Assembly (NCBI RefSeq): GCF_003018255.1
Contig: NZ_CP027440.1
Strand: one strand, 5' to 3'
DNA: 64,000 nt
Origin: Escherichia coli
Lineage (GTDB): Bacteria; Pseudomonadota; Gammaproteobacteria; Enterobacterales; Enterobacteriaceae
This document shows positions 5,568-62,306 of the stretch, in pieces. The position numbers were made by a program, and so were the translations under genes. A model generated the notes under the pieces. The model made no database searches. It saw only the letters and a program-made list of their open reading frames with translations, and was not told the DNA's origin. How positions within the stretch are numbered: the first letter of the stretch is position 1; every line of letters begins with the position of its first letter.

Positions 5568-5984
5568 TTAATCAATAAACAAGGCGGGAGAAATGCCGAA
5601 TCGCGTTGCCAATTTTTTAGCGTGTTCCAGCGTTAATTTCCTCTTCCCGCTCAAAACGCGTGACACCATCGATTTACTGCCAATTTCCGGAAGATCGGAA
5701 AGGGTTAAACCATATTGATCCATAAGGGTACGAATCACAGCTATACCGCCAGGCATGGCTTGCGCCATGGCATTAAATTCAGCAAATTCGGGCGCTGATT
5801 CTTCCCACGCGGTTATTTTGGCACACACCAGATCCAGCAAGGGGTTTTCAGGATCGTTGAGCAGCAGATGATCTACCAGTTCCAGCGCCTGGGTGTATTG
5901 TTCCTCGTTCTGAATACCCGCCAGAAAAGGTGCCACAGCAGTTAACTTTTCTCCTGCTTGCAAGATGTCGGCAATCGCAATCAT
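5568..5984 (-). CDS. higA: Antitoxin HigA (Xre-family HTH)
   Basis: 138-aa ORF; C-terminal HTH region (LTLEHAKKLATRFGISPALF); start overlaps stop of upstream higB remnant (ATGA). Confidence 0.9.
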   Translation of the reverse strand: MIAIADILQAGEKLTAVAPFLAGIQNEEQYTQALELVDHLLLNDPENPLLDLVCAKITAWEESAPEFAEFNAMAQAMPGGIAVIRTLMDQYGLTLSDLPEIGSKSMVSRVLSGKRKLTLEHAKKLATRFGISPALFID

Positions 5985-6060
5985 TTTTTCCCCTTAGTAC
6001 GATGAACGGCGGTAAAGAAATCGTATTCTTTATGCGTCATAACTTCACGTATGTAGCATA
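5981..6060 (-). pseudogene. higB: higB toxin remnant (C-terminal ~26 codons only)
   Basis: Minus-strand translation gives ...CYIREVMTHKEYDFFTAVHRTKGKK* matching the HigB C-terminus as I recall it; upstream sequence diverges into REP-containing DNA. Confidence 0.5.
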
Positions 6061-19194: not shown

Positions 19195-19497
19195 GTCGGT
19201 AAGCGAAAAGTATAAAGTGTCAGCCTGTGTAAATCCTCTCGCCTCCCTCCCCTGCATTCAGCAAAATCAGACTCCACGGACATGTAATTTTGATAACGAA
19301 CAACGTTGACCTTTGTTACAATTAGATTCAATTTGAATTTATGCTTTTGAATGCTTTCTTATCTCACGATTTAACAGGGAATAGTTCAGGCTGTGTTGAT
19401 GTATCAAACCCGCAGAACATACCAAGACAGCAATAACATTGCGGTAGTGCATCATTTAAAACCAGCGTGGCGTTAACCGATTCACCAGGAATAATGA

Positions 19498-20693: not shown

Positions 20694-21062
20694 ATGAAAT
20701 ACCGCATCGCTTTAGCTGTTTCTCTCTTTGCTCTTAGTGCCGGTAGTTATGCCACTACCCTGTGTCAGGAAAAGGAGCAAAATATCCTTAAGGAGATCAG
20801 CTATGCCGAAAAACACCAAAACCAGAATCGTATTGACGGTCTGAATAAAGCCCTGAGTGAAGTCCGGGCCAACTGTTCAGATAGCCAGCTGCGTGCCGAT
20901 CATCAGAAGAAAATCGCAAAGCAGAAAGATGAGGTGGCGGAACGCCAGCAAGATTTAGCCGAGGCGAAGCAAAAAGGCGATGCAGATAAGATTGCCAAAC
21001 GCGAACGGAAACTGGCAGAAGCGCAGGAAGAGCTGAAAAAGCTGGAAGCGCGCGACTACTAA
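20694..21062 (+). CDS. yqjC: DUF1090 periplasmic protein
   Basis: Signal peptide MKYRIALAVSLFALSAGSYA; charged coiled-coil-like C-terminus. Confidence 0.8.
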   Translation: MKYRIALAVSLFALSAGSYATTLCQEKEQNILKEISYAEKHQNQNRIDGLNKALSEVRANCSDSQLRADHQKKIAKQKDEVAERQQDLAEAKQKGDADKIAKRERKLAEAQEELKKLEARDY

Positions 21063-21099
21063 CTCACAATAGTCACTACTTACTCACCTGGAGAAAACT

Positions 21100-21405
21100 A
21101 TGTCGAAAGAACACACTACGGAACATCTGCGTGCTGAGTTGAAATCCCTTTCCGATACGCTGGAAGAGGTGCTTAGCTCATCTGGCGAGAAGTCGAAAGA
21201 AGAGTTGAGTAAGATTCGTAGCAAAGCGGAGCAGGCACTGAAACAGAGCCGTTATCGCCTGGGTGAAACCGGTGATGCCATTGCCAAACAAACCCGTGTC
21301 GCGGCGGCGCGTGCCGATGAGTATGTGCGTGAAAATCCGTGGACGGGCGTGGGCATTGGCGCAGCAATCGGTGTAGTGCTCGGTGTTCTGCTGTCGCGTC
21401 GTTAA
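21100..21405 (+). CDS. yqjD: ElaB/YqjD-family ribosome-associated membrane protein
   Basis: 101-aa ORF with C-terminal transmembrane helix. Confidence 0.85.
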   Translation: MSKEHTTEHLRAELKSLSDTLEEVLSSSGEKSKEELSKIRSKAEQALKQSRYRLGETGDAIAKQTRVAAARADEYVRENPWTGVGIGAAIGVVLGVLLSRR

Positions 21406-21407
21406 TT

Positions 21408-21812
21408 ATGGCGGACACTCATCACGCGCAAGGGCCCGGTAAAAGCGTTCTGGGCATCGGGCAGCGAATTGTTTCCATCATGGTTGAAATGGTGGAGACA
21501 CGTCTGCGGCTGGCGGTGGTGGAGCTGGAAGAGGAAAAAGCGAATCTCTTTCAACTTTTACTGATGCTGGGCCTGACGATGCTTTTCGCTGCATTTGGTC
21601 TTATGAGCCTGATGGTGCTAATTATCTGGGCGGTTGATCCGCAATATCGCCTGAATGCGATGATTGCCACCACCGTGGTGTTGCTGCTACTGGCACTGAT
21701 TGGCGGCATCTGGACGTTACGTAAATCGCGTAAGTCTACGTTGCTGCGCCACACGCGCCATGAGCTGGCAAACGATCGGCAGCTGCTCGAGGAGGAGTCC
21801 CGTGAGCAGTAA
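21408..21812 (+). CDS. yqjE: Inner membrane protein YqjE
   Basis: ATG at 21408 (MADTHHAQGPGKS...), 134 aa. Confidence 0.85.
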   Translation: MADTHHAQGPGKSVLGIGQRIVSIMVEMVETRLRLAVVELEEEKANLFQLLLMLGLTMLFAAFGLMSLMVLIIWAVDPQYRLNAMIATTVVLLLLALIGGIWTLRKSRKSTLLRHTRHELANDRQLLEEESREQ

Positions 21813-22101
21813 AGTCGAACGTGAACGACGTAAGGCGCAACTGCTTAGCCAGATCCAGCAACAACGGCTGGATCTTTCCGCCAGTCGTCGTGAATGGCTG
21901 GAGGCAACAGGCGCTTACGATCGTCGCTGGAATATGCTGTTGAGTCTGCGCTCCTGGGCGCTGGTTGGCAGTAGCGTGATGGCTATCTGGACGATTCGCC
22001 ATCCTAATATGCTGGTCCGCTGGGCCAGACGCGGTTTTGGTGTATGGAGCGCCTGGCGTCTGGTGAAAACAACCCTCAAGCAACAACAGCTTCGCGGTTA
22101 A
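21802..22101 (+). CDS. yqjK: Small protein YqjK
   Basis: GTG start overlapping yqjE end; 99 aa. Confidence 0.7.
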   Translation: MSSKVERERRKAQLLSQIQQQRLDLSASRREWLEATGAYDRRWNMLLSLRSWALVGSSVMAIWTIRHPNMLVRWARRGFGVWSAWRLVKTTLKQQQLRG

Positions 22102-22287
22102 CTTCCTCTCTGGCCGGAGAAATTCCGGCCTTATCCCTCAAATTTTTTGAAAATATTTGACAGTTTTCCTTGCTAACAATCACGCTTCGCCACGTTTATG
22201 ATTCTCTCCATCGACAGCAACGACGCTAATAGCGCGCCCTTGCACAAAAAAACAATCAGCAGCCTGAGCGGCGCAGTGGAGAGTATG

Positions 22288-22680
22288 ATGAAAAAATTAG
22301 AAGATGTTGGTGTACTGGTAGCGCGCATTTTAATGCCGATTCTGTTTATTACCGCAGGCTGGGGAAAAATTACTGGTTACGCGGGTACCCAACAATATAT
22401 GGAAGCGATGGGCGTCCCGGGTTTTATGCTGCCGCTGGTGATTCTGCTTGAGTTTGGTGGTGGTCTGGCAATCCTGTTCGGTTTCCTGACTCGCACCACA
22501 GCCCTGTTTACTGCGGGCTTTACGCTGCTGACGGCATTTTTATTTCACAGCAACTTTGCTGAAGGCGTCAACTCGCTGATGTTCATGAAAAACCTGACAA
22601 TTTCTGGCGGATTCCTGCTGCTGGCAATTACCGGTCCGGGCGCGTATAGCATCGACCGCCTGCTGAATAAAAAGTGGTAA
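22288..22680 (+). CDS. yqjF: DoxX-family membrane protein
   Basis: About 130 aa from MMKKLEDVGV... Confidence 0.8.
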   Translation: MKKLEDVGVLVARILMPILFITAGWGKITGYAGTQQYMEAMGVPGFMLPLVILLEFGGGLAILFGFLTRTTALFTAGFTLLTAFLFHSNFAEGVNSLMFMKNLTISGGFLLLAITGPGAYSIDRLLNKKW

Positions 22681-39248: not shown

Positions 39249-39780
39249 ATTCCTCTCCCCTCATAGGCGACGAATAGCATTTTGTGTTGAGGATCACAAA
39301 ACGAATAATTGCTGGTCGCCGCGATAAGGTCAGACGAAGACAACAAGGGGGATTCTCACTGTGCTTTACATCAGCGTAGGCCATAGAATGTTGCTTCGTT
39401 GACTGTAATGCCGGGTAAATGAGCATTTTTTGATAGTGCGAAAGAACCCTGCGAGGAAAATAAGCATCTATTATTGTTTGTCATGATGACAAGGCAGGCA
39501 TCAATGAAAGGCTTCCCAATTGCACATATTTTTCACCCTTCAATCCCGCCAATGCACGCAGTGGTTAACAATCACAACAGAAATATTGATTATTGGACGG
39601 TAAAAATTTAGGTTATAACGCCCAAATGATTCAACGATCGGACAATACCTGCGAACTTACAATTAATGAGAGAAATATATGTATAATTACGACCTTTTAA
39701 ATGCAATATAGACTTAATAACTTCTTACAAAGTCTATTATTAATACCGTAGATATTCATCTTACCCTGGGCACCAAAAGC

Positions 39781-39813: not shown

Positions 39814-40190
<377 letters not shown>

Positions 40191-51078: not shown

Positions 51079-51946
51079 TCAAACCACCCTGCCGAACGTC
51101 AGTGAAAACGAAGAAACACTGCTGACAGGCGTCAATGAAAACGTGTATGAAGATCAGAGCATTGGCGCAGAGCTGACGAAAAAAGATATCAACCGCGTCG
51201 CCTGGCGTTCCATGCTGTTACAAGCGTCTTTTAACTACGAACGTATGCAGGCTTCTGGCTGGTTGTACGGTCTGCTGCCTGCTCTGAAAAAGATCCACAC
51301 TAATAAACGCGACCTGGCGCGCGCCATGAAGGGGCATATGGGTTTCTTCAATACCCATCCGTTTCTGGTGACGTTTGTTATCGGCATTATCCTTGCGATG
51401 GAGCGTTCTAAGCAGGACGTTAACAGTATTCAGAGCACCAAAATTGCCGTCGGTGCGCCGCTCGGCGGGATTGGCGATGCGATGTTCTGGCTAACGCTAC
51501 TGCCGATTTGTGGCGGGATAGGCGCAAGCCTCGCGCTACAAGGCTCTATTCTTGGCGCAGTCGTCTTTATTGTGCTGTTCAACGTGGTACACCTGGGGCT
51601 GCGTTTTGGTCTGGCGCATTATGCTTACCGCATGGGCGTGGCGGCGATTCCACTCATTAAAGCGAATACCAAAAAAGTCGGCCATGCTGCGTCAATCGTT
51701 GGGATGACGGTAATCGGCGCGCTGGTGGCAACCTATGTTCGTTTAAGCACCACGCTGGAAATCACCGCTGGCGACGCAGTGGTTAAGTTACAGGCTGATG
51801 TTATCGACAAACTGATGCCAGCCTTCTTACCGCTGGTCTACACCCTGACCATGTTCTGGCTGGTACGCCGCGGCTGGAGTCCGCTGCGCCTGATTGCAGT
51901 GACCGTGGTTCTCGGCATCGTCGGTAAATTCTGCCATTTCCTTTAA
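51068..51946 (+). CDS. agaE: PTS GalNAc-specific EIID
   Basis: Start MASNQ overlapping agaW end by 11 nt, same architecture as agaC/agaD. Confidence 0.8.
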   Translation: MASNQTTLPNVSENEETLLTGVNENVYEDQSIGAELTKKDINRVAWRSMLLQASFNYERMQASGWLYGLLPALKKIHTNKRDLARAMKGHMGFFNTHPFLVTFVIGIILAMERSKQDVNSIQSTKIAVGAPLGGIGDAMFWLTLLPICGGIGASLALQGSILGAVVFIVLFNVVHLGLRFGLAHYAYRMGVAAIPLIKANTKKVGHAASIVGMTVIGALVATYVRLSTTLEITAGDAVVKLQADVIDKLMPAFLPLVYTLTMFWLVRRGWSPLRLIAVTVVLGIVGKFCHFL

Positions 51947-57390: not shown

Positions 57391-58171
57391 AATCAGTAAA
57401 AAAGATATCACCCGTCTGGGCTTTCGTTCGTCACTGCTACAAGCAAGCTTTAACTACGAAAGGATGCAGGCGGGCGGTTTTACCTGGGCGATGTTGCCGA
57501 TCCTGAAAAAGATTTATAAGGACGACAAACCGGGCCTAAGCGCGGCGATGAAAGATAACCTCGAATTTATTAATACCCACCCTAATCTGGTCGGATTCCT
57601 GATGGGGTTATTAATTTCGATGGAAGAAAAAGGAGAAAACCGCGACACCATTAAAGGCCTCAAAGTAGCACTGTTTGGCCCAATCGCCGGGATTGGCGAT
57701 GCGATTTTCTGGTTCACTTTGTTGCCGATTATGGCGGGGATTTGCTCATCGTTTGCCAGTCAGGGAAACCTGCTGGGGCCGATTCTATTTTTCGCCGTTT
57801 ACCTGCTTATCTTTTTCCTGCGCGTCGGCTGGACCCACGTCGGTTATTCAGTCGGCGTGAAGGCGATCGATAAAGTGCGAGAGAACTCGCAGATGATTGC
57901 CCGTTCGGCAACCATCCTCGGGATCACAGTAATCGGCGGGCTGATCGCTTCGTATGTGCATATTAACGTGGTGACATCGTTTGCCATCGACAGTACCCAC
58001 AGCGTCGCGCTGCAGCAGGATTTCTTCGATAAAGTCTTCCCGAATATTTTACCGATGGCCTACACCCTGCTGATGTATTACTTCCTGCGGGTAAAAAAAG
58101 CGCATCCGGTGCTGTTAATCGGCGTGACGTTTGTTCTTTCTATTGTTTGTTCTGCATTCGGCATTTTGTAA
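57380..58171 (+). CDS. agaD: PTS GalN-specific EIID
   Basis: 263 aa from MGSEISKKDITRLGF; 11-nt overlap with agaC. Confidence 0.9.
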   Translation: MGSEISKKDITRLGFRSSLLQASFNYERMQAGGFTWAMLPILKKIYKDDKPGLSAAMKDNLEFINTHPNLVGFLMGLLISMEEKGENRDTIKGLKVALFGPIAGIGDAIFWFTLLPIMAGICSSFASQGNLLGPILFFAVYLLIFFLRVGWTHVGYSVGVKAIDKVRENSQMIARSATILGITVIGGLIASYVHINVVTSFAIDSTHSVALQQDFFDKVFPNILPMAYTLLMYYFLRVKKAHPVLLIGVTFVLSIVCSAFGIL

Positions 58172-61953: not shown

Positions 61954-62306
61954 CCACCAAACAGACCGGCGATGCGTGGGAAGCACAAGCGCGTCGCTGG
62001 CTGGAAGGCAAAGGACTACGGTTTATCGCCGCTAACGTGAACGAGCGTGGCGGCGAGATCGATCTGATAATGCGTGAAGGCCGGACCACCATTTTTATCG
62101 AGGTGCGTTACCGCCGCTCTGCGCTTTATGGCGGCGCGGCAGCCAGTGTGACCCGCAGCAAACAACACAAATTATTACAGACTGCCCGCTTGTGGCTCGC
62201 GCGTCATAATGGGAGTTTTGATACTGTGGATTGCCGGTTCGATGTGGTAGCCTTCACCGGGAATGAGGTTGAGTGGATTAAGGATGCCTTTAATGACCAC
62301 TCATAA
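61911..62306 (+). CDS. yraN: UPF0102 protein YraN
   Basis: 131-aa ORF overlapping lpoA 3' end. Confidence 0.8.

Follow-up and report, generated by a model that had tools for sequence, protein, structure and literature searches.

Tight, conserved gene layout and probable graded translational coupling of yqjD, yqjE and yqjK in Escherichia coli

Gene organization of the yqj locus

The DNA analysed here, called the window below, is a stretch of 64,000 nt from Escherichia coli (contig NZ_CP027440.1 of assembly GCF_003018255.1). At the yqj locus it had the following genes and features, with SD for Shine-Dalgarno sequence:

20694..21062, plus strand: yqjC (DUF1090; RefSeq, Pfam PF06476), first gene of the yqjCDEK operon
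21090..21093, plus strand: SD of yqjD, GGAG, 6 nt 5' of the ATG, including the GGA typical of CsrA sites
21100..21405, plus strand: yqjD, 101 aa, stop TAA at 21403-21405
21403..21410, plus strand: yqjD/yqjE junction TAAttATG, 2 nt from stop to start, without an SD before yqjE
21408..21812, plus strand: yqjE, 134 aa, ATG start, stop TAA at 21810-21812
21772..21822, plus strand: predicted RNA hairpin, -24.8 kcal/mol, z = -2.4
21790..21797, plus strand: strong SD of yqjK, AGGAGGAG, within yqjE codons of the conserved L-L-E-E tail
21802..21812, plus strand: yqjE/yqjK overlap GTGAGCAGTAA, 11 nt, from the sequence and RefSeq
21802..22101, plus strand: yqjK, 99 aa, GTG start, Pfam YqjK, start backed by 79 orthologous loci
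22112..22130, plus strand: GC-rich hairpin GGCCGGAgaaatTCCGGCC 3' of yqjK, -14.4 kcal/mol, z = -1.9

RefSeq gives the same coordinates for yqjD, yqjE and yqjK in a 100% identical E. coli chromosome, and the locus is 100% identical to that of E. coli strain JNE23-011. The sequence-only reading of this DNA had placed yqjE 2 nt behind yqjD and a GTG start of yqjK 11 nt inside the end of yqjE. The gap was confirmed by direct reading of the sequence, with which RefSeq agrees, and the GTG start is matched with the sequence, with RefSeq and with the comparison of 79 species described below. The locus and its junction are carried by 5,422 of the 5,426 complete E. coli genomes, and the 61-nt yqjE/yqjK junction was identical in 3,798 of the 5,422 genomes with it; it is also 100% identical to that of BW25113. 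In E. coli K-12 the same locus is yqjCDEK (b3097-b3100), with no difference in sequence features.

The three genes had been described as a yqjD-yqjE-yqjK operon. The tight spacing of the genes stands, but the transcription unit is larger and comprises yqjCDEK. This operon is under sigma-S and CsrA control, and a further sigma-S promoter, lying within yqjC, serves yqjD; the yqjD transcription start site (TSS) is 101-105 nt 5' of the ATG (about window 20995-20999), and CsrA represses yqjD translation at the leader (PMC10746276). A scan of the window with Rfam matched rnpB alone and nothing at the yqjD-yqjE-yqjK locus. The hairpin at 22112-22130 is probably the terminator at the operon end, an atypical one because no T-run follows directly after it, and it received no call in the consensus terminator scan.

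Such close spacing is common in the window. According to the RefSeq annotation, about 11 of the about 51 co-directional neighbour pairs overlap or are no more than 3 nt apart. Three of the about 11 tight pairs are at the yqj junctions or close by, and the others are:

higA/higB: 4-nt overlap
prlF/yhaV: 1-nt overlap
agaF/nagA: 4-nt overlap
agaW/agaE: 11-nt overlap
agaC/agaD: 11-nt overlap
lpoA/yraN: 43-nt overlap
agaD/agaI: 0-nt gap
yqjA/mzrA: 3-nt gap

The 11-nt overlap of yqjE/yqjK is thus seen twice more in the window, at agaW/agaE and agaC/agaD. In surveys of co-directional genes, no other distance is nearly as common as 4-nt and 1-nt overlaps (PMC10666635). The layout of yqjD-yqjE-yqjK is ordinary, not unusual.

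Features of the three proteins

YqjD had a DUF883 N-terminal helical domain (PF05957, E = 4e-13, residues 8-60) and a C-terminal glycine zipper (DUF883_C, PF19029, E = 1.4e-15, residues 72-101), and hydropathy gave a single C-terminal hydrophobic segment at residues 80-100. It also matched the NCBIfam models of ElaB and YgaM, with scores under their cut-offs. In PMC13245402 Table S1, the N-terminal peptide MSKEHTTEHLR together with Ribo-RET and INRI support confirms the annotated start. YqjD is a C-tail-anchored ribosome hibernation factor, which binds the ribosome at the tunnel exit and blocks translation; purified YqjD and purified ElaB each inhibit ribosomes alone in vitro (bioRxiv 10.1101/2024.08.16.608256). 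The E. coli paralogs ElaB and YgaM share with YqjD the C-tail anchor and membership of DUF883, a family reported to bind ribosomes. They differ in being derived from later duplications, and yqjE/yqjK-like neighbours are placed with the YqjD type; such neighbours are reported as conserved across the DUF883 family, of which YqjD is regarded as the archetype (bioRxiv 10.1101/2024.08.16.608256).

YqjE had two hydrophobic segments by hydropathy, TM1 at 45-78 and TM2 at 80-105. A long N-terminal helix runs into TM1 and is followed by TM2 and a C-terminal helix; the AlphaFold2 model had helices at 10-75, 78-109 and 113-133 (pLDDT 83.5). The annotated start is confirmed by the N-terminal peptide MADTHHAQGPGKSVLGIGQR in the same table (PMC13245402 Table S1). 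Overproduction of YqjE stops growth and raises persistence (PMC4738310). The protein matched the Pfam family Phage_holin_3_6 (PF07332, E = 3.5e-21), which is itself described merely as 'putative'. No phage gene and no endolysin was found among the chromosomal neighbours of yqjE (yqjA, mzrA, yqjC, yqjD, yqjK, yqjF and yqjG), and a comparison with PHROGs v4 gave no family at E <= 0.01. The gene belongs to the core chromosome: 5,422 of 5,426 E. coli genomes carry it, as do 80 Enterobacteriaceae species. The 'phage holin' label of YqjE is thus unsupported by genomic context or by phage protein families; the name derives solely from the putative Pfam family.

YqjK matched PF13997 with E = 4.5e-25 over residues 14-86 (88 bits, against a cut-off of 28). 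It is very basic, with 19 K/R against 6 D/E and a net charge of +13. The AlphaFold2 model had two long helices (2-65 and 67-97; pLDDT about 82-84) and no clear membrane span. A weakly hydrophobic segment lies at 45-63, and the best 19-residue Kyte-Doolittle mean was 1.35 (ortholog median 1.23), where the usual threshold is 1.6. Membrane insertion of YqjK, as in some database names ('inner membrane protein'), is uncertain. The statement that at least two of the three small proteins have transmembrane helices is borne out with one segment in YqjD and two in YqjE; YqjK had none at the threshold. Searches of solved structures and folds gave no meaningful match for YqjD, YqjE or YqjK, and neither by sequence nor by fold did YqjE and YqjK have relatives in the PDB.

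Start codon of yqjK

The locus was collected from 80 Enterobacteriaceae species with an alignment of 15 sequences, and all hits that were kept belonged to Enterobacteriaceae. One locus with a disrupted yqjK (L025) was set aside, leaving 79 loci for counting. The codon that aligns with the GTG of E. coli was a start codon in all of them: GTG in 45 loci, ATG in 33 and TTG in 1. An in-frame stop was found within 36 nt 5' of this conserved start in 55 of the 79 loci and within 12 nt in 49. Upstream of it, 59 of the 79 species had no alternative in-frame start. Downstream of GTG 21802 the frame has no further start codon before residue 14, where the Pfam domain of the 99-aa form begins.

Could the gene begin further upstream, at ATG 21760 (113 aa) or TTG 21700 (133 aa), so that the true overlap is at least 53 nt? 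In this strain no stop interrupts the yqjK frame as far back as TTG 21700, both codons belong to that frame, and a longer YqjK of 113 or about 124 aa is called in some database entries. Against this stand the 59 species without any upstream in-frame start and the in-frame stop within 36 nt upstream in 55 of 79 loci, among them one Escherichia species (locus L003) where the stop falls between the two candidate starts. The in-frame ATG at 21760-21762 on the plus strand was rejected as the start: only 10 of 79 species had a start codon at the matching position (-42), no SD precedes it in the window, and the Pfam domain begins inside the 99-aa form. We give such a longer YqjK next to no likelihood. 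From the comparison of orthologous sequences, GTG 21802 is the real yqjK start, because the in-frame stop just upstream excludes a longer YqjK in 55 of 79 species; it follows that any full-length YqjK has to overlap yqjE in E. coli. A different, non-overlapping start of yqjK had been named as the finding that would speak against the overlap; over the 79 loci the alternatives were rejected and GTG 21802 stands.

Conservation of the two junctions

Gene order yqjD-yqjE-yqjK was kept in 79 of 79 usable Enterobacteriaceae loci. At the first junction, yqjE started 1-2 nt past the yqjD stop in all of the 79 loci but one, which had TGATG with a 1-nt overlap. The 18 nt 5' of the yqjE start showed no anti-SD pairing (median +0.7 kcal/mol, range -1.7 to +1.5, 79 species), and yqjE was SD-less in 79/79 species; for comparison, the median anti-SD duplex energies over the 79 species were -6.4 kcal/mol for yqjD and -9.3 kcal/mol for yqjK. 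The published E. coli values (aSD) are -6.18 for yqjD, -0.18 for yqjE (ORF_distance 3) and -11.08 for yqjK (PMC5318159). A 6-bp stem between the yqjE AUG and the last two yqjD codons was considered and dropped, its fold being not stabler than shuffled sequence (z = +0.6).

At the second junction, the SD of yqjK (GGAGGA) sits in conserved yqjE codons for L-L-E-E/D, and none of the 79 loci had the yqjK start more than 11 nt from the yqjE stop. The geometry was as follows:

4-nt overlap (RTGA): 42 loci
1-nt overlap: 11 loci
8-nt overlap: 11 loci
11-nt overlap: 11 loci (Escherichia, the Citrobacter amalonaticus/sedlakii group and Intestinirhabdus)
1-2 nt gap: 4 loci

The overlap length differs because of small frame changes in the variable last codons of yqjE. 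Conservation of the overlap in other Enterobacteriaceae, proposed earlier as a check, is therefore a divided result: closeness was kept in 79/79 loci, and the 11-nt length in 11/79. Five more distant triads, drawn from genomes and metagenomes and with a YqjE identity of 31-53%, were similarly tight: yqjD/yqjE spacing lay between a 1-nt overlap and a 14-nt gap, and yqjE/yqjK overlaps were 4, 8, 11 and 14 nt, and 31 nt as called in one locus. Some YqjE-like genes have no adjoining full DUF883 gene or yqjK gene.

In the predicted hairpin at 21772-21822, upstream yqjE codons (CAGCUGCUCG) would pair with some of the yqjK SD and with two of the GUG bases. The z of the hairpin was -1.7 to -5 in five Escherichia loci, and the mean z over 74 distinct junctions was -0.56. 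In these 74 junctions, where both arms are coding, we found no compensatory changes and no covariation. The hairpin was rejected as a conserved element, being strong in Escherichia alone and without compensatory changes; it would be a feature at the level of this lineage.

Translation output

Ribosome profiling and DMS values were taken from one published dataset (PMC5318159, supplementary file 1):

yqjD: mRNA 240, ribosome density 475, translation efficiency 1.98, aSD -6.2, Gini (-20:40) 0.37
yqjE: mRNA 211, ribosome density 35, translation efficiency 0.165, aSD -0.18, Gini (-20:40) 0.47
yqjK: mRNA 154, ribosome density 18, translation efficiency 0.114, aSD -11.1, Gini (-20:40) 0.53

The ribosome densities of yqjD, yqjE and yqjK stand at about 27:2:1 with similar mRNA levels. 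By this measure yqjD is about 14-fold over yqjE, while yqjE and yqjK are within 2-fold of each other. With densities of 35 and 475, yqjE receives about 7% of the ribosome flux of yqjD. The yqjK gene is translated poorly despite its near-perfect SD. This low efficiency at an aSD of -11.1, together with the high in vivo DMS Gini round the start, fits a masked start like that in the predicted hairpin; the high DMS structure can also be an effect of low translation and not its cause. In a translatome under kasugamycin, yqjD and yqjK each had a ratio of about 1.0; that dataset lacks yqjE.

The layout had been taken to suggest a fixed stoichiometry. Read as equal amounts, this is contradicted, because the ribosome densities on similar mRNA (475, 35 and 18) are at odds with equal synthesis of YqjD, YqjE and YqjK. 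At most the layout fixes a ratio, with yqjD far above yqjE and yqjE at or above yqjK.

Discussion

Translational coupling had been suggested from the layout alone. The suggestion is reasonable, and the comparison of 79 species adds the SD-less yqjE and the kept spacing to it; the coupling itself we infer. When the locus is compared with the usual criteria of coupled genes, the spacing is +2 and -11 nt here and within -11 to +2 nt in the 79 species. The downstream start is weak at yqjE, which is SD-less in 79/79, and at yqjK the strong SD is predicted to lie, in E. coli, in a hairpin that is not conserved. Matched expression was not found, with densities of 475/35/18. In other E. coli gene pairs, coupling by termination-reinitiation requires overlap or a very short distance (PMC10666635; review PMC12548453). 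The yqj genes resemble such pairs (PMC10666635, PMC6728339, PMC12548453) in being co-directional, in the distances of +2 and -11 nt and in the SD-less yqjE. They differ in that coupling was demonstrated by experiment in those pairs and is deduced here, and in that translation of yqjD and yqjE is about 14-fold apart, so that the pair is unmatched.

We consider it probable that the three cistrons are translated in a chain with graded, not equimolar output. The spacing in 79 species, the SD-less yqjE and the yqjK start within 11 nt argue well for it, and coupling is likely stronger for yqjD/yqjE than for yqjE/yqjK. The yqjD gene has its own SD, which would double as the CsrA control site, and is well translated. 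Because yqjE is SD-less and starts 2 nt past the yqjD stop, most of its translation would come from ribosomes that terminate on yqjD and reinitiate, with an efficiency of about 7%. The yqjK gene would be served by the strong SD embedded in the tail codons of yqjE. In E. coli the ribosome finishing yqjE would open the hairpin over the yqjK SD and start, and the site so freed would be used for yqjK initiation either by this ribosome or by a new one. The result would be yqjD far above yqjE, yqjE at or above yqjK, and control at the yqjD leader handed downstream. The role of the hairpin, like any complex of the three proteins, is put forward here as a presumption.

The tight packing might instead reflect genome compaction, with a separate start of translation on each cistron: the strong SD would serve yqjK, an AU-rich start would give yqjE weak initiation without an SD, and neither the gap nor the overlap would have a regulatory role. 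The SD of yqjK is among the strongest possible (aSD -11.1; median -9.3 across species), so own initiation is feasible, and the AU-rich context of the yqjE start might permit some SD-independent initiation. The overlap length is unconserved (1, 4, 8 or 11 nt, or small gaps), short overlaps are frequent in the window, the yqjK-start hairpin is not conserved outside Escherichia, and internal TSSs 5' of yqjE and yqjK have been reported, as far as the citation of them in PMC10746276 goes. This explanation nevertheless seems unlikely to us. The missing SD and the 1-2 nt gap before yqjE, kept in 79/79 species (with the one 1-nt overlap given above), are otherwise hard to explain and point to a reliance of yqjE on ribosomes ending yqjD; the translation efficiency of yqjK is low despite its SD; and strong coupling at such distances is found in other E. 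coli gene pairs (PMC10666635). Far less credible still is a layout that would force YqjD, YqjE and YqjK, as subunits of an obligate complex, to be made 1:1:1. Synteny of the triad across proteobacteria (bioRxiv 10.1101/2024.08.16.608256; also the distant triads) would suit such a complex, but the densities of 475, 35 and 18 with similar mRNA already contradict equal synthesis for exponential growth. In addition, the paralogs ElaB and YgaM act as ribosome inhibitors, for YqjD and ElaB the purified protein alone is enough in vitro, and some YqjE-like genes exist without an adjoining full DUF883 or yqjK gene.

A homologous operon is described from P. aeruginosa, where PA3040-PA3042 consist of a DUF883 gene, a YqjE-like gene and a small third gene with spacing below 15 bp, and where expression rises in stationary phase and under envelope stress (PMC11302039). 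Growth is not inhibited when PA3040 or PA3041 is overexpressed, in contrast to YqjD and YqjE (PMC11302039).

Annotation and literature already cover the genes with their coordinates, the operon, and the synteny of YqjD with yqjE and yqjK. The papers on yqjCDEK and YqjD (PMC10746276, bioRxiv 10.1101/2024.08.16.608256) do not state the conserved lack of an SD before yqjE, the varying overlap length or the unequal densities. The analysis has little weight as discovery and modest practical value: it settles the start of yqjK at GTG 21802 against the longer database forms, and it gives a case where a tight gene layout accompanies very unequal synthesis.

Returning to the graded chain of translation, a wider and rather speculative extension can be drawn from it, which we hold to be doubtful. 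YqjE and YqjK might be a low-abundance membrane partner of the abundant YqjD, the ratio of about 27:2:1 might be hard-wired by poor reinitiation at the SD-less yqjE, CsrA, acting on the yqjD leader as the one point of control, might set all three, and yqjD-yqjE-yqjK might be the ancestral module of the DUF883 family. As examples, such a partner may act in the membrane insertion of YqjD, in its oligomer state or in the release of tethered ribosomes. Since CsrA represses yqjD at its leader, coupling would hand that control to yqjE and yqjK. This possible CsrA relay from yqjD to yqjE and yqjK bears on the roles that YqjE and YqjK may have beside a ribosome hibernation factor.

Other features of the window

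Two 11-nt gene overlaps besides that of yqjE and yqjK were found in the same window, and both lie between genes for PTS IIC and IID subunits. The longest overlap of the window, on the annotated yraN start, is the 43 nt shared by lpoA and yraN.

51140-51150, overlap of agaW and agaE (PTS IIC/IID)
57452-57462, overlap of agaC and agaD (PTS IIC/IID)
61983-62025, overlap of lpoA and yraN, as annotated

Several annotated fragments and small genes were also present.

5982-6059, minus strand, higB toxin, annotated as a truncated pseudogene without its N terminus
19393-19476, plus strand, ORF of 27 aa with a GTG start (VLMYQTRRTYQDSNNIAVVHHLKPAWR), annotated as hypothetical protein
39576-39742, plus strand, a pair of short CDS fragments, both annotated as incomplete pseudogenes
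39814-40190, minus strand, rnpB (Rfam RF00010)

The higB pseudogene, so annotated, is adjoined by an intact higA antitoxin gene, which it overlaps by 4 nt. The 27-aa ORF ends 21 nt upstream of yqjA, and the two pseudogene fragments are positioned between tdcR and rnpB.

Start of yqjF

22198-22680, plus strand, yqjF reading frame

The RefSeq start of yqjF is placed at 22288, giving 130 aa, whereas the frame is open from the ATG at 22198, giving 160 aa. This longer start lies in a promoter-like site, 22173-22202.

Irregular copies of the locus

2896-3198 of L025 (an assembly of Trabulsiella odontotermitis), yqjK interrupted by a premature stop codon (VNHNAPHPP*)

The broken yqjK still has the GTGA junction, and the gene is intact in a second strain of this species (L037). 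Either the L025 copy is a pseudogene or its stop comes from an error in the assembly. By the records of the E. coli genome collection, one genome has the locus twice; among all copies in the collection, one is listed as plasmid-borne.

Nature of YqjK and distant relatives

21805-22098 of the window, YqjK protein
791-1099 of L084, third gene of a distant triad
2001-2975 of L085 and 873-1847 of L086, distant YqjE-like gene

YqjK is very basic, with a net charge of +13, and its hydrophobic stretch falls below the usual transmembrane threshold in every ortholog. The name "inner membrane protein" is not secure for YqjK; as a basic helical protein whose gene lies beside that of a ribosome-binding factor, it could have RNA or acidic lipids as ligands instead.

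With E = 0.017 and 16 bits, the match of the L084 third gene to the YqjK Pfam model stays below the cut-off of that model. Third genes for which "no recognised domain" was reported, such as PA3042 of the homologous Pseudomonas aeruginosa operon, may be diverged relatives of YqjK. In L085 and L086, neither a full DUF883 gene nor a YqjK gene adjoins the YqjE-like gene; about 320 nt downstream of it lies a gene that joins the glycine-zipper tail anchor of DUF883_C to a CsbD stress domain. Such a fusion near a YqjE-like gene suggests that the DUF883_C tail anchor is a swappable module.
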